Source of the DNA: an uncultured bacterium
GTDB lineage: Bacteria; Patescibacteriota; Dojkabacteria; SC72
NCBI GenBank assembly: GCA_903906305.1
Contig: CAIVJR010000009.1
Coordinates: 36,687 to 100,686 of the forward strand
DNA length: 64,000 nt
Reading direction: 5' to 3'
Made by a program: the position numbers and the translations under genes
Shown: in pieces, positions 32,207 through 61,027 of the stretch
Layout of the letters: every line of letters starts with the position of its first letter
How positions within the stretch are numbered: the stretch's first letter is position 1
The notes under the pieces: model-generated
What the model saw: only the letters and a program-made list of their open reading frames with translations
The model's database searches: none
Told to the model about the DNA's origin: nothing

Positions 32207-35200
32207 CTACTTTATATTTTTCTCTTTGTCCTCTTCTTCTTTTCTTCTTCTAGCAATTAAGAAGATTATGAAGGAGAGGAGTGATACTCCACCGATTACA
32301 TATACCCACCATGGAATTGGTTTTCCATCGGCTTCTTCGTTATTGGTATCTTGTGTACCTTTTACTTCTTCCTGATTTACAGGAGAGGATGTTTCTTCCT
32401 CTTCTTCAGTGGTTTCTACTCCTTGAACTGCTTCTGGTGTAACTTCAGCTACTGTTGCTGCACCTCTTACTGCTTGCTGAGGTACTGCTGCAACTATCAC
32501 ACTTGATGCATATGGATCATTTCCTTCAACTATTGTATTGGAATCACTTCTATTTCCAGCTGTATCTACTACATAGTATGTGAAGATATGCGTTCCTACA
32601 CTTAATGTATTGATTAAAGCTGTTATATCCCAACTGTAACCTGTTCCAAACAATGGTAAGCAGGTTTGGGTGTTTGTATCTATTACATAACAGACTTGAG
32701 AGAGCTCGGTGTTATCACTTAATGCTAGGGATCTTGGTGTTGTATCTCCTGTTGTGAATGTAGTTGCTGCTAATACCTGAGCCAAAGGATTTGTCTTATC
32801 AATCTTTACTACTTCGGATGTTTGTACTGCTTCAACATTCCCAGCCATATCCTCTGAGTAGAATGTTATCGTGTTCAAACCTTCTTCAGAAACTGTTACT
32901 GTATTTCCAATCTGTTCTGTACCACCATTGACTGAATAGTGTGTTAGGTAACATCCACTTCCATCAATGTCTGTACATGTTAAGGTTACTGTTACATCAG
33001 TGTTATGCCATTGCGAATCGATACCTGATGCTGTGGTTACAGGTGCAAGCATAGGGGTTGTGTATTCTGTGTATGGTGTGACTGACATTATATTTCCTGC
33101 TAAATCATGTACATTCTGTACTCCCCATTGTTGTTCTGGAGATAGGTACCAACCTGCGTTTAAGAATGTAACTGTAGCTGTGTTTGTTTCTGAATCATAA
33201 GTGATTGAAGCATCACCTAACAAATCTCCTGTCCCTCCAGCGGTTGGCCAGTTATTCAAGAAGTAATTTGTTGGGTTTGTTGCATCCGCCTCGTTCATTG
33301 GTTCACTAAATACAGCTTTGAAACCAGTTGCTGATGGGCTTGGAATGTCAAATATTAAGTCAACAGTTGGAGCTGTGTTATCAACATTAACGGTTAACCA
33401 TTCAACAGATCCAGCATCCTTATTATTTGCTGCATCTCTAGCTTCTAACTTGATGGTATATTGACCATCAGGAAGTGAGGTTGTATTCCAGTTTAAAAGT
33501 AGTTTATCTGTGAAAGAAGTAGTGTCATTAACAGTTCCTGGTCCTGCTACTTTTGTGCCACTACTATTTGTAATGACAAACCAGTAGTGATGTGGATTTG
33601 TATCAGTTACTGTTCCTCTAACTTCTATTGTAGCTGAAAGATGAGTAGATGTTGGAGAGGTGATCTCTACATCTGGTGCGGTTGTATCTACAATTAATGA
33701 ACCATAGTGGGTGGTAGAGGTTATGTTTCCTGCGTTATCTAATGTTCTAATATTGAAATACCAAATACCATCTGAAAGCACAGGGCTTGTTACATTGGTT
33801 GTCCCAACAGGTAACCAGTTTGAAGGAGAGATTATTGGTGTCTCTGGAGTATTTGAGAATGAGTAGTAGTATCCGGCAACACCACTAATTGCATCAGATG
33901 CTCCACTAAAGGTTATATCAATTGTATTATCATTCTTTGGTGTGTTTAAGGAGTGTGATGCTACAAAGGATGTTGGGTCTTGTGGTAATTGATTGTCCCA
34001 TATAAATGAGTCAGCAATTCCTGTTCCTGGGAGGGCGTGTACTTGATCCCATGCATAAGGAGTGAATGTGTATGTGACTCCATTTTGCAATGCAGGAAGA
34101 GTCTTCGTTAATGTCCAATTCTCATTTCCTGAGACATTGTGCAACATTGGGATAACTGTCCATGTATTTCCTATTAACCAATATCTGTTATTACTACTTC
34201 TCTTAAGCGTAACCATTACATTTGTTATTTCACTTACTGTATCTGAAGCTACACCTTTTACAAGAGGGAGGCTGTTAGGACCATAGAATGGGTTATCTAT
34301 GATTGTTTGAGATTGTGGTAAATTCTTATCTACCTTTCTTTCTACAATATTTGAAACAACTGTATTTCCAGCATTATCTTTAACCTTTGCGCTAATCTCT
34401 AATCCGGCGTTATCAAATAACTGGTTACTTGGTACACCAAATGTACATCTATTTCCTACAAGCGTTCCATTGCTCCACGTTGTTCCATTTAGTGTGTACA
34501 TACATGAAGTATGATCAATTCCACTTAATGAATCAGATACGGGTACGGTTATTAAGAAGCCTGTTTGTCCATTTACATACTTACTTAAATAGTCAACAAC
34601 GATATTTACATTTCCAATAGTAGGAAGAGTTGTATCATATGTGATATTTGTCATCATAGGGCTATGTTCCATATTCCCTGCGGTATCAATGCCTTCGGCT
34701 TTTATGTCAAATGTCCCTTCATATGGAGGGGTCCATTCATATCCCCAGTCAAATGGTAATGAGCTTGAGGTGTTATCTATTGAATCTATATAAGTCCAAT
34801 CAGAGGATAGGTCTGAGTTTCTGAAATACAAACTTACCGAAGATACATTATTTGCATCTGTAGATGTTCCTAATATATTTATTGCAGATCCGTTATTTGA
34901 ATTTGAAAGATTATTTCCAAACAATGAAACTGGAGCTATATTGTCTACAGTTATTTTCCAGGCATCTGTCCATGCTGATTTGTTTCCAGCATTATCGACA
35001 GCTTGTACTCTCCACCAGAAAGTAGCGTCAGCAACATTTACAGCTGTTTTGCTTGTTGTAGTAAAGGTTTGGCTCCATCTCAAGCTAGTTAGGTTTGAGT
35101 CATTGTAGCTTTCATAATTATAGTAAGCTACATCTGTGCTGGTATCTGACCAAACATTAGTTACTGAAGCACCATTTACATATACTCCGTCAGAAGGTGA

Positions 35201-37339
35201 TACTAAAACAGGAGTTGCTGGAGCTGTCTGATCATAGTAATAATGTACCCACTCACTCCAAACTCCTTCATTTCCTGCATTATCGAATGCTTGTACTCTG
35301 AAACTTACTCCGCCTTGTTCACTGATACTGGGAGTATGGTTTCTTTGGCTTGCTGTTGTTGTTCTGTATGGTGCTCCTGAGAATGTATGACCATCATCGT
35401 ATTTATATTCAATTCGGTACAATTGTATTCCTGATGGATCTGATACATCAGTCCAATCATTTAGAATAGTGTTGACATTAAAGTATTGTTCTGGTGTTGG
35501 AGATACAATTATTGGGGCTTCTGGCCCTGTTTTATCGTATGTGATTTCACAGAGAGATGTCCAATCTGAGACATTACCGGCTTTATCCTTTGCTCTTACC
35601 TTTATCTGGTGTAGTCCTTCATTTAAAGTTCCTGTATATTGTGAATTTGCAAAGAAGGAATTCCAAGTTCCTTGTCCACCAGTTGGGAGGGGATAGTTAA
35701 TGCTGTAATCATATCCGGCCAATGCGAAATTATCGGTAGAATCGTTCCAATCTACTGTATTAACTCCAACATTAGTAACTGCTCCACATGAGAACACAGG
35801 ATTTGAGAATCTAAGATTTTGTGGTATTGCAGGTACAGTATTATCTACTGTAATCTTCCATGCATCTGTCCATGAGCTTTCATTTCCAATTCCATCTATT
35901 GCCTTTACGTGCCAGTAATATTCCCCTTCTGGAGTCCCAGTTGTTGATATCTGAGAATCAGAAAGTGGAGATGAGGTGTAAACGGGTGATACAAAAGAAC
36001 CATCAGGATTTAGGCTTGGTGAAAGTGAAGATTGATATATGTATGATACAGGAGAGGAAGGATCTGTCACGGTAGTCCAATCGATTAATGTCTGAGAGGC
36101 TGTAGTTTTGAAACTATTATTCTCAGGGGATATGTGAGTAGGGATATCTACACTTCGATCAATCTCTAGACATCCAGTAACATTAAATGTGTAAGGCATA
36201 TTGACGGCATTATAATTATCCCAACCAGGGATTGCTCCATATGCAAACTCGCCCCATGTATATGCACTTGTTCCTTTTTTTACACCATATATATCTGAGA
36301 TTGCAGTATCGCCTTCAACACTTAAGGATATGGTACCGCTTGATATTGCCATTGTTAAATCGAGTATTCCATCTACTGGTATTGTGTAATCTCTGAAATT
36401 GCTTACAATTTCTCCACCTTGGTTTCCATCAGAAGGGCCAATTCTTACAAGTGTAGATGTTCGTCTAAAAATATATGCGTAAGCACCGCTCTGGTATCCA
36501 GTTTTTCCAGTTTCTAATAATCCTTTATCAAGTAAACCTACCATTGAAACTGCCCCTATAGGCATTGAATTAACATCTATTGTCCCAGTAAATATGGTTG
36601 CCGTATTATTTGGATCACAAACATAGGCTGGGTTACCCCATTGATATGCGTGAGAATATATTGATGGTGCTGTGCTACCTACATATCTTAAATACCAATT
36701 TCCAGCAGTAGAACTAGAGTCTTCAATTACTCCGACAGAACCTTCAAATGTAACAACAAATATGGTGAAATGGTCTAAATTGCTGATGGTTAATAAACTA
36801 CCATTCCCCACAACATTCTTAATATCTTTTGCATCTACTAATCCACTAACATTCTCAGCATATATAACCTTAGTATTATCTCCAACCTTAGGTAATGTAA
36901 GATCATATTCAAATGAACCATCCGTCATATCCGTTGTAATATCATATGCAACATCCGAAGCCGCATTAGTTGCTTTAACCTGTTCATCTGTTAGATATAT
37001 TGTTTTGATTGTAAGCGTACTTGAAACAGCAGGAAGTTTGGAGAAGGTAACAGTAACTGCAGGATTAATAGGGTAGGTATATGTCTCTCCAATTACAACA
37101 GGAGAAGAAGTAGTAGCAGATTCCCCAGAAGTCATCCATGTAGGCTTTGCAATCTCCTCAGGATCTGAAATACCCTCATCAAGAATATCTCCCTCAGTAT
37201 CAGTTACTACTGATTCGGTTGAAGCAGCATCCTGCACAGGCATAAGGGATTCTATGGCTAGAAGAGGTTGAGCAAATGTAAACAAAATGAGGAATGCAGA
37301 GGTAAATAACCTCAAACCGAAAGTAGAAGATCTCTTCAT
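32207..37339 (-). CDS. Giant (1710 aa) cell-surface protein with signal peptide, many Ig-like/Big/FN3-like repeats and a C-terminal TM anchor plus basic tail
   Basis: Signal MKRSSTFGLRLFTSAFLILFTFAQPLLA; recurring repeat endings DNAGNxS...W(T/S)(D/E)...TVDNTxP (e.g. SSWTDAWKITVDNTVP, SAWTDAWKITVDNIAP, WSEWVHYYYDQTAP); C-terminal WWVYVIGGVSLLSFIIFLIARRRKEE. Confidence 0.8.
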   Translation of the reverse strand: MKRSSTFGLRLFTSAFLILFTFAQPLLAIESLMPVQDAASTESVVTDTEGDILDEGISDPEEIAKPTWMTSGESATTSSPVVIGETYTYPINPAVTVTFSKLPAVSSTLTIKTIYLTDEQVKATNAASDVAYDITTDMTDGSFEYDLTLPKVGDNTKVIYAENVSGLVDAKDIKNVVGNGSLLTISNLDHFTIFVVTFEGSVGVIEDSSSTAGNWYLRYVGSTAPSIYSHAYQWGNPAYVCDPNNTATIFTGTIDVNSMPIGAVSMVGLLDKGLLETGKTGYQSGAYAYIFRRTSTLVRIGPSDGNQGGEIVSNFRDYTIPVDGILDLTMAISSGTISLSVEGDTAISDIYGVKKGTSAYTWGEFAYGAIPGWDNYNAVNMPYTFNVTGCLEIDRSVDIPTHISPENNSFKTTASQTLIDWTTVTDPSSPVSYIYQSSLSPSLNPDGSFVSPVYTSSPLSDSQISTTGTPEGEYYWHVKAIDGIGNESSWTDAWKITVDNTVPAIPQNLRFSNPVFSCGAVTNVGVNTVDWNDSTDNFALAGYDYSINYPLPTGGQGTWNSFFANSQYTGTLNEGLHQIKVRAKDKAGNVSDWTSLCEITYDKTGPEAPIIVSPTPEQYFNVNTILNDWTDVSDPSGIQLYRIEYKYDDGHTFSGAPYRTTTASQRNHTPSISEQGGVSFRVQAFDNAGNEGVWSEWVHYYYDQTAPATPVLVSPSDGVYVNGASVTNVWSDTSTDVAYYNYESYNDSNLTSLRWSQTFTTTSKTAVNVADATFWWRVQAVDNAGNKSAWTDAWKITVDNIAPVSLFGNNLSNSNNGSAINILGTSTDANNVSSVSLYFRNSDLSSDWTYIDSIDNTSSSLPFDWGYEWTPPYEGTFDIKAEGIDTAGNMEHSPMMTNITYDTTLPTIGNVNIVVDYLSKYVNGQTGFLITVPVSDSLSGIDHTSCMYTLNGTTWSNGTLVGNRCTFGVPSNQLFDNAGLEISAKVKDNAGNTVVSNIVERKVDKNLPQSQTIIDNPFYGPNSLPLVKGVASDTVSEITNVMVTLKRSSNNRYWLIGNTWTVIPMLHNVSGNENWTLTKTLPALQNGVTYTFTPYAWDQVHALPGTGIADSFIWDNQLPQDPTSFVASHSLNTPKNDNTIDITFSGASDAISGVAGYYYSFSNTPETPIISPSNWLPVGTTNVTSPVLSDGIWYFNIRTLDNAGNITSTTHYGSLIVDTTAPDVEITSPTSTHLSATIEVRGTVTDTNPHHYWFVITNSSGTKVAGPGTVNDTTSFTDKLLLNWNTTSLPDGQYTIKLEARDAANNKDAGSVEWLTVNVDNTAPTVDLIFDIPSPSATGFKAVFSEPMNEADATNPTNYFLNNWPTAGGTGDLLGDASITYDSETNTATVTFLNAGWYLSPEQQWGVQNVHDLAGNIMSVTPYTEYTTPMLAPVTTASGIDSQWHNTDVTVTLTCTDIDGSGCYLTHYSVNGGTEQIGNTVTVSEEGLNTITFYSEDMAGNVEAVQTSEVVKIDKTNPLAQVLAATTFTTGDTTPRSLALSDNTELSQVCYVIDTNTQTCLPLFGTGYSWDITALINTLSVGTHIFTYYVVDTAGNRSDSNTIVEGNDPYASSVIVAAVPQQAVRGAATVAEVTPEAVQGVETTEEEEETSSPVNQEEVKGTQDTNNEEADGKPIPWWVYVIGGVSLLSFIIFLIARRRKEEEDKEKNIK

Positions 37340-44328: not shown

Positions 44329-44373
44329 GCTTTGCTCTGTAACTTATCCACAATTTGTAATATAATCCTTTGT

Positions 44374-44943
44374 ATGCAAGACGCAGATGTCCCTATGTGG
44401 GATAAAGGAGATAAAACTGATGACTACGCTAAGGGCGGAGGTGGATTCCCCATGTTTGGAATGGGTAACGAAAAAGGGGAGAAATCTTCAGCCATAGAAG
44501 AAGCATATGAATTAGTATTAGGAAGAAAACCAACCTCAAGAGAACAGTCCTACTACAGATATTCTTCAGCTAAGAAAGAAGAAATCCTTAAGAAGCTATT
44601 AAATAGTGATGAACACAAAGAAGTAATAAAGAAAGGTAGAGATTACCCAGAATTAGAAGACAGAGAGAAATTAGGGCAGAGCACAATATTGAAATTAAAA
44701 CATAGCATCGATGACCAACAAGGAGAAGTAAATGAGATGAAATCTATGTTAGAAGAGAAGAATAAAGAAATTTTGGTATTGAGAGAAGAAAAAAATATAC
44801 CATTTGTAACTCAATCTTTCTTAGAGGGAAAAGGAAATATATATTACAGTGATACAACATTTAAACCAGTTCAAACAGAATCTAGATTACCCCAATCTTG
44901 GTTAGACAAACTATCTTACTTCATACAAAAAATATCAAAATGA
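44374..44943 (+). CDS. Hypothetical Lys/Glu-rich coiled-coil protein (the track ORF starts at 44332; first ATG at 44374 is preceded by TATAAT at 44361-44366)
   Basis: ORF plus charged heptad-like segments; overlaps the downstream HTH gene start by 4 nt. Confidence 0.4.
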   Translation: MQDADVPMWDKGDKTDDYAKGGGGFPMFGMGNEKGEKSSAIEEAYELVLGRKPTSREQSYYRYSSAKKEEILKKLLNSDEHKEVIKKGRDYPELEDREKLGQSTILKLKHSIDDQQGEVNEMKSMLEEKNKEILVLREEKNIPFVTQSFLEGKGNIYYSDTTFKPVQTESRLPQSWLDKLSYFIQKISK

Positions 44944-45143
44944 CTCCAAAACTATTTGCTAAAAGATTAAAACAAGCTAGAGAAGAGTATGGATATTCCC
45001 AAAAACAGTTGGGATTGAGAATAGGGTTATCGGATAAATCAATTAGTATATATGAAAAAGGGCAGGTATATCCTCCAGTTTCAAACCTAATTAGAATAGC
45101 TAAGGAATTGAAGAAAGATATTGATTTCTTTTTGAAGGACTAA
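44940..45143 (+). CDS. XRE-family helix-turn-helix transcriptional regulator (the track ORF from 44898 is trimmed to the ATG at 44940)
   Basis: KRLKQAREEYGYSQKQLGLRIGLSDKSISIYEKG is the HTH_3 signature. Confidence 0.75.
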   Translation: MTPKLFAKRLKQAREEYGYSQKQLGLRIGLSDKSISIYEKGQVYPPVSNLIRIAKELKKDIDFFLKD

Positions 45144-45769
45144 TGAGGTGGTGTCAACCAAACCTTTGTTCTCTTTAGTGCCTTTTTAGAAAGCTCGATA
45201 CCACCCCATATGGCTAAACCAGAAACTCCTATTAATACTAAAACCTCAATAACTACCAATATTGTATATTCTGGTGTAATAGGCTGAGATACTAAACCAT
45301 TACTAAGTGTTAACGAGTTATTCACTGTATTAGTGTAATTAGTATCATATTGCCAAGAAACAACACTAACCGTAATCTTGTACTCTCCACTCAATGTAGG
45401 CTTTATAACAGCCTTGTATTTGGATTCAACATCCTTAGTAACACTCACAAACTCCTTATGTCTAGGAGTTATTTTAATTGTAGAAGAGCTATCCCAAATA
45501 ATTTGCGTCTTAGCTGAATCAATATGCGGAACAATGGATATGGTATATGTAATACTCTTGTCTAAAGGTGATTGTCCACCTTCTGTAAGTGTAAGATCAA
45601 AGTATTTGTTTGTTGCCCTAGTAGTATTTTCATCAACTGTAGTCTCAAGGGTATATTCTCCCGATGTAGTATCTTCAGTTTCTGTTACAACCTCTTGGGC
45701 ATTAACAAAAGAGGACGAAAAAGCGGGAAAAATTATTAAAAGAGTTAGAATAGATAGTATTTTTTTCAT
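45140..45769 (-). CDS. Secreted Thr/Ser-rich protein with signal peptide and C-terminal TM anchor; last gene of the HEPN operon
   Basis: Signal MKKILSILTLLIIFPAFSSSFVNA; C-terminal ILVVIEVLVLIGVSGLAIWGGI plus basic tail; start overlaps the upstream gene by 4 nt. Confidence 0.5.
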   Translation of the reverse strand: MKKILSILTLLIIFPAFSSSFVNAQEVVTETEDTTSGEYTLETTVDENTTRATNKYFDLTLTEGGQSPLDKSITYTISIVPHIDSAKTQIIWDSSSTIKITPRHKEFVSVTKDVESKYKAVIKPTLSGEYKITVSVVSWQYDTNYTNTVNNSLTLSNGLVSQPITPEYTILVVIEVLVLIGVSGLAIWGGIELSKKALKRTKVWLTPPH

Positions 45770-46182
45770 TTTAATATCCTATGTATACTCATGTTATATA
45801 TTTTATATGCTTCTTCAGCTTCATTTTCACTTACATCTAAATCGTCATGTACAATCCTATTCCTTAGCTTATGTGCTTCCCAAAGTCTATCATATTCAGT
45901 TCTTTTAAACCTTTTATTTATCAATTTAAGATTATCTCCACATAGTTTGGTATTACCTAATCGATATTGAAGTGCTTTTGAGAGAATATTATCTAGTTTT
46001 ATGACCGTATCCCTTCTTCTAGCCAGGTCATCACTACTAGCACCTGCTTTAAGGGCCTCTAAGCTATTTAGCATGCGCGAAATACTCTTCTGCCTCTCTT
46101 TCCTAGTCCCTGAAGCAACCATGATGAAAAGGACTGCTACGGCTATTAGAATCAATATTGTAATTATTACTGCATTATCCAT
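45766..46182 (-). CDS. Membrane-anchored HEPN-domain protein (DUF4145-like, Rx4H motif)
   Basis: N-terminal TM IITILILIAVAVLFIMVA followed by RKERQK (positive-inside, so the domain is cytoplasmic); C-terminal EAHKLRNRIVHDD carries an R-x4-H HEPN motif. Confidence 0.5.
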   Translation of the reverse strand: MDNAVIITILILIAVAVLFIMVASGTRKERQKSISRMLNSLEALKAGASSDDLARRRDTVIKLDNILSKALQYRLGNTKLCGDNLKLINKRFKRTEYDRLWEAHKLRNRIVHDDLDVSENEAEEAYKIYNMSIHRILK

Positions 46183-48067
46183 TTTGCTTTGGTTTTATCT
46201 TGTTAGATATGAAATATATTAAATATACTACACCAGCGAATGTGATTAATGATATGGCTTTGGTTATTATTTGAATATATACCGGTGTTGTAATGTTGGT
46301 ATCTGATGCTGAAAGTACAGATTCTGAATAGTCTTCATTAGAGAACTCAATGCTCAAAGAGATATTTGTGATATCAGTGGTATTAGGAATGTTTAACTGT
46401 ATTGTTGCGCTTTGGGTAGGAAGTATAACTTGGGAATTAATATTGTTAACAGGATCTATATATTTTTTAATATCTGCGATGTTTGATTCACCAATTGTAT
46501 ACTTGTTTATGGCTATATTTCCTGTATTGGTAATATTTAGAAGTCCTTTGATATATTTTGATATTGTATTGTTGTTATCAAATACCAATTGAGTACTAAA
46601 TTTTAATTCAGGAGTTATCTCTTCTTGTGAGCTAGAAACTACCTTAAAGTCTGAATCTTTGTAGAAAGTAAGCTTAGGTGCAGAAGGCGATTTCCCTCGT
46701 TTTAATATGGCAATATGGTCAAAGAAAGCATTGCCGTAAAGTGGTTTTGTAGAGTAATCCTCAAGAAATGGATCCATTGTAATCCATCGTTTTTGAACAA
46801 AGTCGTAAGCCTCTACCCAGTAGCTGTAAAAACCATCGGAGGTATATCCAGAGATATTTGAGACAAAGCCAATAACCTGTCTTGTTGGGATACCATATTT
46901 TCGTAGGATTGTTACTAGGAAGTCAGTATAGTCGGCTGGAGTAGCTTCATTGGGGTTGGCTACTAAGTTATCAAATCCTACGCGACTATCTGTAATTACA
47001 CCATCAGCAAGATCTTTTTGTGGGTTGAGTCGCTCAACGGTGTATTGGTAAAGATATTTGTAAATTAATTCTTGTTTTCCTTCTTCCAAATCTTTTACAT
47101 TAGTAAAAGCATCGGTTATATCTAGCCCTTTATTCTTTAAATATGTGATTATCCTTATGAATTCTATTTTTTCTGTTGTTTTCCAGTATCCATGATTGGT
47201 AATCAAAAATGCTTCAGTAGAGTTCTCATCGGTGATTGGATTACGTTTTAAAATATGTCCATTAATCTTACAGTCAATTGTGCTTTCTGGACCAACTATA
47301 TATTTAAAAATATAGTTGCCATCCTCATCTTGCTCTGCTATGTTTGGTAATGGATCGAGTTTGTCCCAAACTATTGTCTGAGTAGTACTGTCTGAAGGTA
47401 ATATTAGCTCAAAGGTTTGATTTTGGTCTGTAAGTGAGTTAGTAAAGGTCTTTGATACTGTAAACTCATATGAAATGGCTTTCCCAAAAAGCATTGCTAT
47501 ACTGGAGTAGAGTGGCTTTAGAATTGTAATTTGATAGTTATCGTCTACACTTTTTATATTTTGTATTGCATCTGAAGTCCAAAGTGGTTCCCCTTTAGTT
47601 TTTGGGTATGTCAAAACCACACTGTTTGTAACTGCATCCTGTACAGAAGAAACAATATTTAATGACTCGGATGAAGTTATATTAGTATGGTATGTAATTC
47701 TTAAGGTTATTGGTGCATTACTTCTAACAAGTGAGTTATTAAAATCCACCAATATATCTGTTCCTCCGCTTCGTTTGTAGTTAGTACAACCTAATGGCTT
47801 TGATGATGTTACGTTGTAGCATTCTGCAGTGATATTCTCTTGTGGAATCGTGGTAGTAAAGTAGGATATTACCCTTGGTGTATTTGCAGAGATGGTTATT
47901 ATGGCTTGTGTATCAATAGTGGTGTCACTAATTCCATGAATAAAGTCGGAGGTAAGAGTGAATTGTTCTTCTACTGCATGAATATTTTGTGAAGAGAGAA
48001 GTAGGAATGAGATTACAAGGCTAAATAGCAACGGAATTTTCTTTAAATAGCCAGTCAAATTTCTCAT
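46175..48067 (-). CDS. Surface-anchored protein with a transglutaminase-like core whose catalytic Cys/His positions are substituted (predicted pseudo-enzyme); signal peptide plus C-terminal TM
   Basis: ADYTDFLVTILRKYGIPTRQVIGFVSN...SYWVEAYD...WITMDP parallels GxCxxFA...GIPAR.V.G...HAWVEVY...W...DP of the transglutaminase-like superfamily, with C->Y and H->S; signal MRNLTGYLKKIPLLFSLVISFLLLSSQNIHA. Confidence 0.5.
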   Translation of the reverse strand: MRNLTGYLKKIPLLFSLVISFLLLSSQNIHAVEEQFTLTSDFIHGISDTTIDTQAIITISANTPRVISYFTTTIPQENITAECYNVTSSKPLGCTNYKRSGGTDILVDFNNSLVRSNAPITLRITYHTNITSSESLNIVSSVQDAVTNSVVLTYPKTKGEPLWTSDAIQNIKSVDDNYQITILKPLYSSIAMLFGKAISYEFTVSKTFTNSLTDQNQTFELILPSDSTTQTIVWDKLDPLPNIAEQDEDGNYIFKYIVGPESTIDCKINGHILKRNPITDENSTEAFLITNHGYWKTTEKIEFIRIITYLKNKGLDITDAFTNVKDLEEGKQELIYKYLYQYTVERLNPQKDLADGVITDSRVGFDNLVANPNEATPADYTDFLVTILRKYGIPTRQVIGFVSNISGYTSDGFYSYWVEAYDFVQKRWITMDPFLEDYSTKPLYGNAFFDHIAILKRGKSPSAPKLTFYKDSDFKVVSSSQEEITPELKFSTQLVFDNNNTISKYIKGLLNITNTGNIAINKYTIGESNIADIKKYIDPVNNINSQVILPTQSATIQLNIPNTTDITNISLSIEFSNEDYSESVLSASDTNITTPVYIQIITKAISLITFAGVVYLIYFISNKIKPKQNG

Positions 48068-48755
48068 ATTTTCTTAATATTTGTTTTATTACAGGAGTCT
48101 TTGGGGTAATTCCATAGTTTAATATTATCTTATCCCAATCTAATTTTTCAGGTTCATTAACAATCTTGTAGTAAGGATTTCGGACAGTTTCCTGTTTGGC
48201 ATTCTTTCTAATAATATAATAGGCTAATCCGTTCTTATCATCAAGCACAACCTCAGGGCTTGCATTTATGCTTAAGAATTCAGCAAATATGAGGTTAGAG
48301 TTTTGTCTTGTATTCACGATTACTGCACTATAGCCAGCAGGAATTATCACCTTTTGTTCCTTTTTTGCTACGATTCGAATAATTCTATTATCCTTTGGAC
48401 TTCTGTATCTTTGCATCAATATTGTTGCTCCACCATATACAATATCTATTAATCTTGCGTATTTTGAACATCTTGTAGCTCTTGTTTTAACAAATTCAAT
48501 ACCTGCTAAGTTTGGTTTAAGCACAATGAAATTGATTTGTAGATCTTTTGAGGAATAGAGGTTGTCTAGATCGAGGTGTTTGTATTTCTTGTAAAATACG
48601 TCAGGGCATGTAAGCTCTTTGTTTAAGAGTTGTGGGCGGATATCATCTATGGAGACAGAGACTACTTCCTTGAAGCTTAAGTCTTTTATTTGTAAATCTT
48701 CACCATCGTAGACTAAAGGAAAACCTGAAGTCTTTTTAAGGTCAATTTTTGCCAT
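48021..48755 (-). CDS. Hypothetical cytoplasmic protein (244 aa), first gene of the HEPN/transglutaminase-like operon
   Basis: ORF only; overlaps the downstream gene by 47 nt. Confidence 0.4.
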   Translation of the reverse strand: MAKIDLKKTSGFPLVYDGEDLQIKDLSFKEVVSVSIDDIRPQLLNKELTCPDVFYKKYKHLDLDNLYSSKDLQINFIVLKPNLAGIEFVKTRATRCSKYARLIDIVYGGATILMQRYRSPKDNRIIRIVAKKEQKVIIPAGYSAVIVNTRQNSNLIFAEFLSINASPEVVLDDKNGLAYYIIRKNAKQETVRNPYYKIVNEPEKLDWDKIILNYGITPKTPVIKQILRKYEKFDWLFKENSVAI

Positions 48756-48779: not shown

Positions 48780-49067
48780 TTATTCCCTTGAGAAGGATTT
48801 GAGGAGCTCAGAGAGGATAAAGGCTGCTATCATAAAGAAAACGAGAGCTACAATGGGTGTTAAGGAAAGCGTAAATCTATCTATCTGTATAGCGTTTGTA
48901 GTTATACCTTCAAATGGTTTAACGAATATATCGCTTGTATTCATAATCCAGCTTACAATTGTATTTTGTATATTAGCATTGATAATTGATAGTACAATTC
49001 GAGTCATTATTAAGGCCTCGATGAGCATTGTTGCGGTGTAAACCAATCTAATTAGTAGTTTTAACAT
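48780..49067 (-). CDS. YggT-family small membrane protein
   Basis: 95 aa; LIEALIMTRIVLSIINANIQNTIVSWI is YggT-like; preferred over the fully antisense 48754..49041 ORF. Confidence 0.55.
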   Translation of the reverse strand: MLKLLIRLVYTATMLIEALIMTRIVLSIINANIQNTIVSWIMNTSDIFVKPFEGITTNAIQIDRFTLSLTPIVALVFFMIAAFILSELLKSFSRE

Positions 49068-49069
49068 GG

Positions 49070-49819
49070 TTATAGATTATCAAGATTATCTGCATAATAG
49101 TCAAGTTCTCTCATAAATCTAGTGACTGTATTGGCCCAAACGTGTGCTGTGCCTTCCGCACATGGAGGACAATATGCAGGTTCGATTTCAAATGGTGTAA
49201 GTGTTACTCCATATCCCTGAGAAAGTCCTCGGGTAATTTCTTTAATTCCGTCTGGCCAAGTTGCAAACATGCTCCAACCACTTGGGCTCTTGTTAATTCC
49301 TCTCCATCCCCATGCATTGTTTGAATTTCCTCCTGGAACAATGTTCCCAAAAGCAGATTCTACACCTGAAATTGATGCTACAAGCCTCCAGTCTAGGCCA
49401 TATCTATCTGCCTCTGTAACAAATACATTTGCATACTGCGCCATTGGTGAATGATAGTCAGTTAGAAATTTGTTCATCGCTAAAATCCTAGGATCAACGG
49501 TTAAGAATCGTGACACACCAGATTTCTTCGTATCGGCAATATTTGTGGAAAGACTGTATTCTGGAGAGTAGATATGGATATCGAAAACAGGTGATAACGA
49601 GTTGATCTGAGTTTGAGAATTCTCTTGCGAAACTTTCTCTATGGCATCGACCATAACCTTCTCGTAGTGTGGAGATACAAAAACATAGTACAGAACAAGA
49701 ACTATGGCTACCATCAGTGCTCTAGTAATTCTAGAGTGATATAAAGACTGAATAGACAACTGTTTTAACTTAATACCCATTGGTTCTGGCATAATATCCA
49801 GTATAACAGAAAGGGGCAA
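49070..49819 (-). CDS. Membrane-anchored peptidoglycan hydrolase-like protein (lytic transglycosylase/glucosaminidase-like)
   Basis: Single TM, then GLDWRLVASISGVESAFG with E-S in an SLT-like context; weak assignment. Confidence 0.4.
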   Translation of the reverse strand: MPLSVILDIMPEPMGIKLKQLSIQSLYHSRITRALMVAIVLVLYYVFVSPHYEKVMVDAIEKVSQENSQTQINSLSPVFDIHIYSPEYSLSTNIADTKKSGVSRFLTVDPRILAMNKFLTDYHSPMAQYANVFVTEADRYGLDWRLVASISGVESAFGNIVPGGNSNNAWGWRGINKSPSGWSMFATWPDGIKEITRGLSQGYGVTLTPFEIEPAYCPPCAEGTAHVWANTVTRFMRELDYYADNLDNL

Positions 49820-59056: not shown

Positions 59057-61027
59057 TTAGTTATTGATATTAGATTGTATTTCTTTTATTTGATCTCTTA
59101 GTTCTGCAGCTTTCTCAAATTGCATACTATCAGCAGCAAGTAACATCTTAGCTTCTAATTTCTTTATTAACAATCGCTTCTGTTTTTGGTCTAATTTCTC
59201 AACATATTCATCATCAACATTTATTTCTTCTTCTTTCTCTACCAATGACCCTCTTATTTCTTTAATAATTGAGGTAGGGGTTATTCTATTTTCTTCGTTA
59301 TATTTCTTTTGGTAGTCTCTTCTTCTGTTGGTCTCAGAAATAGCATATTTCATGCTATCTGTCATATTATCTGCATACATTATAACTCGGCCTTGTACAT
59401 GCCTTGCAGCTCTTCCAATGGTCTGTACCAGACTGGTCTTAGATCTAAGGAACCCTTCTTTATCTGCATCCAAGATTATCACTAACGATACTTCTGGTAA
59501 ATCAATTCCTTCTCTCAGTAGATTAATGCCTACAATGACATCATATTTCCCTAATCGTAACTCTCTTAATATTTCAACTCTTTCAACAGTATCAATATCT
59601 GAATGTAGATATTGAACTTTAATACCAGAATCTTTAAGGTAATCTGTTAGATCTTCTGCCATGCGCTTCGTCAATGTTGTAACTAACACTCTTTGTCCAT
59701 TTGCGACATTCTTGTTTATCTCGGTTATTACATCATCAATCTGTCCTTCTGTCTTTCTAATTTCTATCTCAGGGTCTACCAAACCTGTTGGTCTTGTAAG
59801 CAGTTCTACAACACTCTTGTTGCTATCTTGCAGTTCATACTCCGAAGGTGTTGCAGATATATATACTGTAGTACCTTGTTTCTTAACAAATTCATTGAAG
59901 TTTAGTGGCCTGTTATCTCTCGCACTTGGCAATCTAAACCCATATTCAATCAAATTATCTTTTCTTGCTCTATCTCCATTGTACATACCACCAACTTGAG
60001 GGATTGTAATGTGAGATTCATCAATGAACAGGAGGTAGTCATCAGAGAAATAATCGAGAAGTGTATATGGAGGCTCACCAGTTTTTCTTCCATCAAAATA
60101 TATTGAATAGTTCTCCATACTTTTACAATATCCAACTTCTTGGAGCATTTCGATATCATAGTTGGTCTTTTGCTCTAATCTGTATGCTTCGATATCTTTG
60201 CCAATATTTTTTAAGAAAGCTACACGTTGCATGAGGTCTCGTTGGATGTTACCAACAGCCGATTTTATAACGTCATCAGAATATACCAATGATGTCGCAG
60301 GAAATATTAAGATTTCATTCATCTCCTGTATTTTGTGCTTGGATATTGGGTCTACCTTGAATATGTTTTCAATCGTATCTCCAAACATCTCAATCCTGAT
60401 GGAATATTCCTCATATGGTGGGAATATCTCTACAGTATCACCATTAATTCTAAATACTCCTGTATCAAAATCATATGTATCTCGAACATATCTCATCGTG
60501 ACTAATTCTCTAGCTAAAGCTGTTAGATTGAACTCGTGTCCTTTTCTTAATTCCAATGACTTGTTTTCATAGTTTGCTGGGTCTCCAATATTGTAGATAC
60601 ACGAAACTGAAGCTACTACGATAGTGTCTTTCCTTGTTAAAGCTGAATTCATCGCTCCAAATCTAAGATTCTCAATTGCCTTGTTTACTTGTGATTCTTT
60701 TTCAATGTAAAGATCCTTTGCAGGAAGATATGCCTCAGGTTGGTAGTAATCGTAGTATGAGACAAAATATTTTACAGAATTTTCAGGGAAGTATTCTTTG
60801 AACTCTTCATACAACTGCGCCGCAAGAGTTTTGTTGTGTGAAAGAATCAATGTTGGTCTGTCTAATTTCTGTATTACATTGGCCATGACAAATGTTTTTC
60901 CAGAACCGGTTACACCAAGCAATGTCTGCCTTTGTTTTCCATTACCAATATTTTCTAACAGTTCATTTGTAGCCTGTTGTTGGTCAGGAGAAATGACATA
61001 TGGTGCTTGTAATTTGAATGAATCCAT
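59057..61027 (-). CDS. uvrB: Excinuclease ABC subunit B
   Basis: GVTGSGKTF Walker A, DESH box, C-terminal UVR domain (MQFEKAAELRDQI). Confidence 0.95.
   Translation of the reverse strand: MDSFKLQAPYVISPDQQQATNELLENIGNGKQRQTLLGVTGSGKTFVMANVIQKLDRPTLILSHNKTLAAQLYEEFKEYFPENSVKYFVSYYDYYQPEAYLPAKDLYIEKESQVNKAIENLRFGAMNSALTRKDTIVVASVSCIYNIGDPANYENKSLELRKGHEFNLTALARELVTMRYVRDTYDFDTGVFRINGDTVEIFPPYEEYSIRIEMFGDTIENIFKVDPISKHKIQEMNEILIFPATSLVYSDDVIKSAVGNIQRDLMQRVAFLKNIGKDIEAYRLEQKTNYDIEMLQEVGYCKSMENYSIYFDGRKTGEPPYTLLDYFSDDYLLFIDESHITIPQVGGMYNGDRARKDNLIEYGFRLPSARDNRPLNFNEFVKKQGTTVYISATPSEYELQDSNKSVVELLTRPTGLVDPEIEIRKTEGQIDDVITEINKNVANGQRVLVTTLTKRMAEDLTDYLKDSGIKVQYLHSDIDTVERVEILRELRLGKYDVIVGINLLREGIDLPEVSLVIILDADKEGFLRSKTSLVQTIGRAARHVQGRVIMYADNMTDSMKYAISETNRRRDYQKKYNEENRITPTSIIKEIRGSLVEKEEEINVDDEYVEKLDQKQKRLLIKKLEAKMLLAADSMQFEKAAELRDQIKEIQSNINN

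Follow-up and report, generated by a model that had tools for sequence, protein, structure and literature searches.

Transglutaminase-like domains that have lost catalytic activity are already well known, and the ciliary DRC7-type proteins are among them. Other inactive examples include erythrocyte protein 4.2 (EPB42), FBXO21, and the nucleotide excision repair scaffold Rad4/XPC, and both migrations and swaps of the active site are documented within the papain-like superfamily (PMC10318531). The inactive transglutaminase domain of yeast Cyk3p is reported to be essential (PMC3386208), and two reports assign the Cyk3 domain a role in septum formation (PMC3386208, PMC4758748). In the candidate phyla radiation (CPR), the only experimentally characterised protease of the transglutaminase-like/vasohibin type is CPR-C4, a small homodimeric active enzyme with the triad Cys61-His93-Leu115 (PMC9108980). 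The window analysed here is a stretch of 64,000 nucleotides from an uncultured bacterium of the Dojkabacteria (assembly GCA_903906305.1, contig CAIVJR010000009.1, positions 36,687 to 100,686 of the forward strand), and its minus strand encodes a transglutaminase-like (TGL) protein of 630 amino acids. Dojkabacteria are uncultured CPR bacteria with small genomes. The TGL protein of the window has proline and serine at the positions of the catalytic Cys and His, retains the catalytic Asp, and is probably a membrane-anchored pseudo-enzyme in which the disabled core is the domain that appears to be under the strongest selection.

All coordinates given below are positions in the window. The TGL gene, its domains, and the block of genes from p249 to p209 that surrounds it all lie on the minus strand. 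The TGL coding sequence (46175..48067) is complete in the list of open reading frames (ORFs), with an ATG at 48067 and a stop codon at 46175-46177.

The transglutaminase-like core and its triad

Residues 369-433 of the window protein match the Pfam family PF01841 (Transglut_core, clan Peptidase_CA) with E=1.2e-7; the score of 32.4 bits exceeds the gathering score of 23. The match spans profile positions 51-108 of 108, which is the C-terminal half of the model, and the same profile is matched by all 52 aligned Dojkabacteria members (best E=2.6e-13). The fold is papain-like alpha+beta: the helix on which the Cys would normally lie packs against the sheet bearing the His and Asp positions. A transglutaminase-like relationship had been claimed by eye in an earlier, sequence-only reading of this gene, and both the Pfam score and the fold bear it out.

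A profile built from the core alone, with mixed members, matches PDB sequences of TgpA (E=1.6e-11), 3ISR (2.6e-6), TG2 (6.5e-4), and Rad4 (1e-3). Restriction to the core is needed because queries of the PDB sequences with the protein alone, or with a family profile over the full length, return spurious matches only (PEDF, an aminotransferase, a designed kelch protein, and a Fab). The Rad4/XPC domain PF03835 reaches 15.6 bits, below its threshold of 27, and is found below threshold in 25 of the 52 members, a relationship at the level of the clan only. Peptidase_C93, the family of the bacterial transglutaminase-like cysteine proteinases (BTLCPs), gives no Pfam match at E<=10, so a comparison with BTLCPs, which had also been suggested, fails by sequence. 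DUF2207 (PF09972) is matched by neither the window protein nor the 52 Dojkabacteria members; a precomputed match to it exists in 4 of 120 listed Cys-bearing relatives. No NCBIfam model matches the TGL protein.

The register of the triad was determined from 270 retrieved proteins aligned to a family hidden Markov model (HMM), with column counts taken over 259 or 261 sequences. Of 259 sequences, 69 have a Cys in column 377, invariably alongside His415 and Asp432; the other 190 are varied there. The Cys-bearing relatives share the motif C-[TQM]-E-[FY]-T-D-L-F-I-A-L-A-R, in which the Cys stands three residues ahead of an aromatic residue. In the profile alignment, this family Cys column coincides with the catalytic cysteines of human TG2 (Cys277, YGQCWVFAAVACTVLR) and TgpA; the aromatic residue at +3 pairs with TG2 Phe280, and TG2 His335 and Asp358 lie opposite the family His and Asp, respectively.

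The window protein carries Pro377 (CCA, 46937..46939) at the nucleophile position, Tyr380 (TAT, 46928..46930) at the conserved aromatic position, and Ser415 (AGC, 46823..46825) at the catalytic His position. The third triad residue is kept as Asp432 (GAT, 46772..46774), which belongs to an invariant D-P motif and is Asp in 260 of 261 sequences. Three independent alignments (the family HMM, a MAFFT alignment of mixed cores, and a profile alignment against TG2, TgpA, and 3ISR) concur on Pro377, Ser415, and Asp432; the Asp is thus the sole residue of an active triad that is present, both the Cys and the His being replaced.

The segment on which the by-eye alignment was based, ADYTDFLVTILRKYGIPTRQVIGFVSN…SYWVEAYD…WITMDP, corresponds to residues 378-433. 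That alignment had read the nucleophile Cys as Tyr and the His as Ser. The substitution of the His holds, as does the loss of the Cys itself; the Tyr results from a misregister of three residues. Tyr380 was rejected as a nucleophile because Tyr or Phe occupies this position in the Cys-bearing members as well (Tyr in 186 and Phe in 70 of 259 sequences, with no other residue in the Dojkabacteria alignment).

Order of active-site loss

The combinations of residues at positions 377, 415, and 432 among the 259 sequences describe a graded series. The intact C-H-D triad is found in 69 sequences, P-H-D in 56, A-H-D in 25, N-H-D in 20, and S-H-D in 19; P-N-D accounts for 28, and P-S-D, the state of the window protein, for 5 including the window. 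Among Cys-less members, position 377 is occupied by P, A, S, N, Q, V, T, or D. Position 415 is His in 222 of 261 sequences, Asn in 28, and Ser in 9, and the Asn and Ser residues occur in the sub-clade of the window. The Cys is missing from 190 of 259 sequences, and the His is kept in most of the family.

The loss extends beyond the nucleophile. In the Cys-bearing group, Tyr349, Pro372, Glu379, Phe384, Leu414, and a DPTW..T motif are each conserved in at least 91% of sequences. In the 190 Cys-less sequences the ancestral residue no longer predominates at those positions (Pro372 is at 48%, and Glu379 has become a conserved Asp), and Arg457 is the sole residue specifically gained. No Cys, Ser, or Thr of the core is conserved in at least 85% of this group, and 23 full-length Cys-less relatives contain no cysteine at all; together these two observations exclude a migrated thiol nucleophile at the level of the family. 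An intact triad elsewhere in the window protein, which could have overturned the assignment, is likewise absent: its only cysteines are C83, C94, and C266. C83 and C94 were considered as a migrated nucleophile and rejected, being a coupled, disulfide-like pair in another domain. The alignments argue strongly that the Cys-less group has genuinely lost catalysis, and the conclusion that thiol-based catalysis is impossible there appears well supported.

The P-N-D and P-S-D sequences form one contiguous clade inside the His-bearing Dojkabacteria in neighbour-joining (NJ) trees, which are coarse and midpoint-rooted, the core tree having been built with capped distances. A parsimony reconstruction that places a Cys-less state at the root is not trusted, because the outgroup enzymes TG2, TgpA, and 3ISR have the Cys. 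The codon of residue 415 is AAC (Asn) in the nearest orthologues and AGC (Ser) in the window and in its closest relative, locus L007, which suggests a path of two single-base steps from His (CAY) to Asn (AAC) to Ser (AGC). Taken together, trees and codons indicate that the Cys was lost at or near the base of the Dojkabacteria and the His afterwards in the sub-clade of the window, and that the Asp was never lost.

Distribution and selection

Homologues at 37-97% identity to the window protein, each of about 630 amino acids and aligned over the full length, come exclusively from metagenome-assembled genomes (MAGs) of the Dojkabacteria/WS6 type. The nearest are L007 (97% identical) and a 'candidate division WS6' genome (72%). 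The genome collection holds 61 species-level loci, all of them Dojkabacteria and recovered with a Dojkabacteria alignment as query. Nearly every MAG has one locus; one MAG is represented by two fragmentary contigs. No second TGL copy was found in the window, and an intact paralogue there is thereby rejected.

An exhaustive profile search for distant relatives found 1,214 cluster representatives at E<=1e-3, 874 of them at E<=1e-10, and most have about 600-650 amino acids and can be aligned from end to end. The Cys-bearing relatives are very numerous: with 8,000 candidates scored, more than 4,500 clusters pass E<=1e-10. Where named, they belong to Candidatus Curtissbacteria or other Microgenomates-type Patescibacteria, and the named Cys-less members are all Dojkabacteria, down to about 24% identity to the window protein. 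Within a large family of membrane-anchored Patescibacteria proteins, TGL is the orthologue belonging to the Dojkabacteria (candidate division WS6), where it is present in single copy. Many MAGs that carry the Dojkabacteria-specific gene block described below (L007, L011-L013, and others) are titled 'uncultured Candidatus Saccharibacteria bacterium', one is titled 'Magasanikiibacteriota', one 'Microgenomates', and some generically 'Patescibacteria'; these titles are probably generic labels or mislabels. A search of the literature returned nothing on 'pseudoenzyme' with 'transglutaminase-like', nothing relevant on Dojkabacteria with transglutaminase, and nothing on the TGL family.

The ratio of nonsynonymous to synonymous substitution rates (dN/dS, or omega) between the window gene and L007 is 0.026 overall and 0.011 in the core. 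This comparison alone gives a clean omega, since dS is saturated for orthologues at or below 72% identity; in the more distant comparisons, dN is lowest in the core. Across the phylum, the mean frequency of the major residue is 0.69 in the core and 0.54-0.62 in the other domains, with a peak of 0.84 at residues 401-420, the loop and strand that lead into the former His. This loop is shorter than that of the Cys-bearing relatives, and unlike it. In 61 genomes the reading frame is unbroken by internal stops. TGL is under strong purifying selection and is not decaying, and none of its other domains is as conserved as the dead core. The protein nevertheless evolves fast by comparison with its neighbours, as is typical of exposed proteins: in most loci TGL identity is 33-48%, compared with 57-78% for the adjoining glucose-6-phosphate-isomerase (GPI)-like gene.

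Domain layout and membrane topology

The core is embedded in a protein with hydrophobic segments at both ends. Residues 1-31 (47975..48067) form a basic and hydrophobic N-terminus (…SSQNIHA/VEEQ) with a hydropathy peak at 6-29, and the predicted structure has a helix there at residues 5-23, at low confidence in the predicted local distance difference test (pLDDT). From hydropathy and charge, this segment is probably a Sec-type signal peptide, possibly cleaved, or a signal anchor. Its first residues, MRNLTGYLKK, are kept phylum-wide. Residues 35-275 (47243..47965) make up one or more all-beta N-terminal domains, which in fold searches resemble the substrate-capping domain of M1 aminopeptidases and OST1 and which contain the co-varying pair C83/C94. 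A helical linker, residues 286-346 (47030..47212; model helices 286-289, 301-312, and 329-346), precedes the core and falls within the 226 residues aligned with 3ISR.

The catalytically disabled, papain-like core itself occupies residues 365-460 (46688..46975), with support from Pfam and from the profile against the PDB. It is followed at residues 474-590 (46298..46648; model strands 474-589) by an immunoglobulin (Ig)-like beta-sandwich stalk with a weak match to DUF7507 (E=0.035) and an N-T-G-N motif at 514-517, in which N514, G516, and N517 are invariant. A C-terminal transmembrane (TM) helix at residues 596-624 (46196..46282), seen both in the model and as a hydropathy peak, leads into the basic tail NKIKPKQNG. 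The predicted model of the whole protein has a pLDDT of 85 and a predicted template modelling score (pTM) of 0.76.

This layout is general in the family. Among 115 Dojkabacteria members, 106 have the hydrophobic N-terminal segment and all 115 have the C-terminal TM helix with a net-positive tail; 106 combine two hydrophobic termini with no internal TM segments, as do the Cys-bearing relatives. No LPXTG-like motif is present in the window protein, so the anchor is not of the sortase-dependent type. C83 and C94 occur together in 124 family members, are both absent from 121, and occur singly in one. This all-or-none co-variation points to a probable structural disulfide in the N-terminal domain, which fits an extracytoplasmic location. 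Hydropathy, charge, and the coupled Cys pair, which suits an oxidising compartment, agree with a type-I-like topology, and TGL appears to be an extracytoplasmic protein with its bulk outside the cell. The sequence-only reading had called the protein surface-anchored, and it was right in so far as the anchor is a membrane anchor of this type (an N-terminal hydrophobic segment and a C-terminal TM helix), the orientation being the likely one.

Genomic neighbourhood

In essentially every Dojkabacteria locus, TGL lies in the same order of genes: a divergent dnaE is followed by the same-strand block p249, YggT, cupin-type GPI-like gene, TGL, p138, and p209, and beyond the block come an HTH gene, p203, and, further on, iPGM. 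The block is headed by p249 (49070..49819), a membrane protein of 249 amino acids with a GVESAFG motif and a sub-threshold SLT_2 match (E=0.089), and YggT (48780..49067) comes next. The cupin-type GPI-like gene directly upstream of TGL (48021..48755; Pfam GPI E=1.7e-7) has this arrangement in 63 of 67 loci. Directly downstream, in the same orientation and in 60 of 67 loci, is p138 (45766..46182), a protein of 138 amino acids with an N-terminal TM helix and no match to a Pfam family. It is followed in 57 of 67 loci by p209 (45140..45769), whose 209 amino acids comprise a signal peptide, a beta-rich region with a weak TIG match (E=0.016), and a C-terminal TM helix. Both p138 and p209 are possible candidates for partners of TGL.

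Stops and starts overlap by 47 nt between the GPI-like gene and TGL, by 8 nt between TGL and p138, and by 4 nt between p138 and p209. The first of these overlaps (48021-48067) recurs at exactly 47 nt in annotated loci down to 26% identity (L001-L004, L070, and the P0125 contig); the overlapped TGL N-terminus is itself conserved, which indicates that both frames are constrained. A functional operon was not accepted on the strength of this synteny. The conserved block takes in dnaE and iPGM, and the Cys-bearing relatives have a different context; for these reasons the gene order was not treated as functional evidence.

Several further features of these loci may be recorded. The helical domain of p138 carries the sequence LRNRIVHDD, which by eye contains an R-x4-H pattern, a candidate HEPN-like motif. 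An ORF of 203 amino acids with a TTG start (44332-44943, +) overlaps by 46 nt the ORF of an HTH_3 regulator (44898-45143, +). Conservation of the two ORFs, in convergent orientation with the TGL block, extends to 53-54 of 67 loci; the 203-amino-acid ORF has a weak DUF4214 match. In two Curtissbacteria-type genomes, Cys-bearing relatives of TGL lie between uvrA and uvrC (L068, 5001-6914; L069, 5001-6878), in the order uvrB … uvrA, TGL, uvrC, a holin-like gene, CofD, SecG, which is a curious setting for a predicted extracytoplasmic protein. Further Cys-bearing relatives with the same architecture occupy other genomic sites. In the window, uvrB (59057-61027) lies about 11 kb from TGL and is not adjacent to it. 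An ORF of 1,710 amino acids on the minus strand (32207-37339), with bacterial Ig-like repeats (Big_13, Big_3_3), probably encodes a giant surface protein.

Possible functions of the non-catalytic core

The reading we favour, at a probability of about 60%, is that TGL is a membrane-anchored, outward-facing pseudo-enzyme whose ligand is bound but not turned over, both the binding and the ligand being suggested by precedent. That the protein is a pseudo-enzyme had been predicted from the start, and the prediction draws support from the loss of the whole active-site set, the free variation at position 377, and the strong purifying selection. In the relatives of the Microgenomates type the core has the Cys-His-Asp triad and presumably works at the surface as a cysteine protease, an amidase, or a transglutaminase. 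The Dojkabacteria lineage has lost the nucleophile Cys and several other active-site residues, position 377 being left unconstrained, and the sub-clade of the window has lost the His as well (His to Asn to Ser415), with Asp432 alone left. The former substrate cleft, held off the membrane by the Ig-like stalk and capped by the N-terminal beta-domain, may now bind a ligand, most plausibly a peptide or protein, or a component of the cell envelope or of a partner cell. The protein could thereby serve at the cell surface in recognition, in adhesion, or as a scaffold.

Several considerations weigh against this reading. The binding role is suggested solely by analogy, and the orientation and the signal-peptide cleavage are read only from hydropathy, charge, and the coupled, disulfide-like cysteines. 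Because the synteny takes in housekeeping genes (dnaE, iPGM), the neighbourhood is no reliable pointer to function. Most members keep His415 and Asp432, and D382, H451, and R457 are conserved too; non-thiol chemistry in the His-bearing majority therefore stays formally conceivable. An argument can be made for TGL as a working enzyme, with a migrated or non-canonical centre, another nucleophile, or a hydrolytic site based on His/Asp or on Asp/His451/Arg457. The superfamily offers precedent for active-site migration (PMC10318531), 222 of 261 sequences keep His415 and 260 keep Asp432, D382 does not vary, H451 is found in 237 of 259, R457 is a gain specific to the Cys-less group, and the core is the most constrained region. 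Yet D382 and H451 are equally conserved in the Cys-bearing members and so do not mark a replacement site, and the residues around the old active site have relaxed along with the Cys. The 190 Cys-less sequences offer no core Cys, Ser, or Thr at 85% or above, 23 proteins are without cysteine, and the one conserved Cys pair is disulfide-like and in a different domain. In the clade of the window the His too has gone, to Asn and then to Ser, without any relaxation of selection. Continued catalysis is on this evidence quite improbable. That the loss of the triad is an artefact of alignment, or the gene a decaying pseudogene or an error of annotation, might be suspected from the three-residue shift of the by-eye alignment and from a Pfam match limited to model positions 51-108; this is refuted by the agreement of three alignments, by an ORF intact in 61 genomes with an omega of 0.03, and by a model with pLDDT 85 and pTM 0.76.

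A different possibility is that the core is a mere spacer, the function residing in the N-terminal beta-domain, the Ig-like domain, or a complex with p138, p209, YggT, and the SLT-like protein, perhaps as a Cyk3-like scaffold of the envelope or of division. Almost every Dojkabacteria locus keeps the block from p249 to p209 with its overlapping stops and starts, the N-terminal domain is similar to the M1 aminopeptidase/OST1 capping domain, and an inactive transglutaminase domain does act in septum formation in the case of Cyk3 (PMC3386208, PMC4758748). It is the core, however, and not the flanking domains, that is most conserved and has the lowest omega. The synteny also covers the unrelated dnaE and iPGM and may merely reflect a stable genome, relatives that bear the Cys have the same architecture in another context (uvrA-TGL-uvrC), and the SLT-like assignment of p249 is below threshold (E=0.089). 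A passive core is on balance unlikely. The favoured reading, a ligand-binding pseudo-enzyme, can be extended into a more specific proposal, which is offered tentatively and is itself rather doubtful: the ancestor of the Dojkabacteria may have turned a surface cysteine protease or transglutaminase of the Microgenomates group into a receptor without catalytic activity, present throughout the phylum in single copy. The dead cleft of this receptor and its remodelled 401-420 loop would recognise a specific envelope component, either of a host or partner cell (episymbiotic attachment) or of the cell's own dividing wall together with p138, p209, YggT, and the SLT-like protein, as a bacterial counterpart of Cyk3.

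Since inactive transglutaminase-like domains are well known, TGL adds little in the way of concept. The new findings are modest and consist of the mapping of the dead site, the stepwise, phylum-wide loss from an intact Microgenomates-type ancestor, and the finding that the dead core is still the selected part. With one strongly constrained, membrane-anchored dead enzyme per genome examined, TGL is a concrete candidate for a factor that acts in recognition or as a scaffold at the surface. Its family, moreover, provides a natural series from enzyme to pseudo-enzyme, running from Cys-His-Asp in the Microgenomates through loss of the Cys to loss of both Cys and His. For annotation, the label 'transglutaminase domain-containing protein', which databases already attach to this protein, is no guide to enzymatic activity in the Dojkabacteria clade, and motif matching by eye can misplace a nucleophile, here by three residues.

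Comparison with known systems

The closest relatives outside the Dojkabacteria are the Cys-bearing proteins of the Microgenomates type (the Curtissbacteria 'transglutaminase domain-containing protein'; P0204, P0302, P0339), for which the searched literature holds no experimental characterisation. They have the same length (about 620-645 amino acids) and the same layout of N-terminal hydrophobic segment, beta-domain, Transglut_core, Ig-like domain, and C-terminal TM helix with basic tail. Common to both groups are the invariant residues R362, D382, R389, G400, W417, W428, D432-P433, and P464. The Cys-bearing relatives differ in that they keep Cys377-His415-Asp432 and the rest of the active-site set, have a longer loop ahead of the His, share only about 17-21% full-length identity with the window protein, and are found in the context uvrA-TGL-uvrC.

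Unlike TGL, the transglutaminase-like putative cysteine protease of Cytophaga hutchinsonii (3ISR) and TgpA of Pseudomonas aeruginosa (6G49/6G4H) retain the catalytic Cys, and neither has the LTA4H/OST1-like N-terminal domain, the Ig-like stalk, or the single C-terminal anchor. BTLCPs are small, soluble proteins that retain Cys-His-Asp. TGL resembles LapG of this group (Peptidase_C93) at the level of the fold only and lacks the triad. CPR-C4 comes from the same bacterial radiation and belongs to the same broad superfamily as TGL (PMC9108980). Membership in the same family was rejected, because CPR-C4, of the transglutaminase-like/vasohibin type, has a different architecture and is absent from the top structural matches of TGL.

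Known inactive transglutaminase-like domains are those of EPB42, Rad4/XPC, Cyk3, FBXO21, and the DRC7-type proteins. These proteins are eukaryotic and intracellular and stand in unrelated domain contexts, whereas TGL is a protein of CPR bacteria, extracytoplasmic by its predicted topology and anchored in the membrane. The loss of the triad in TGL is independent of that in the eukaryotic inactive domains, and the likeness between them is one of outcome, not of membership.

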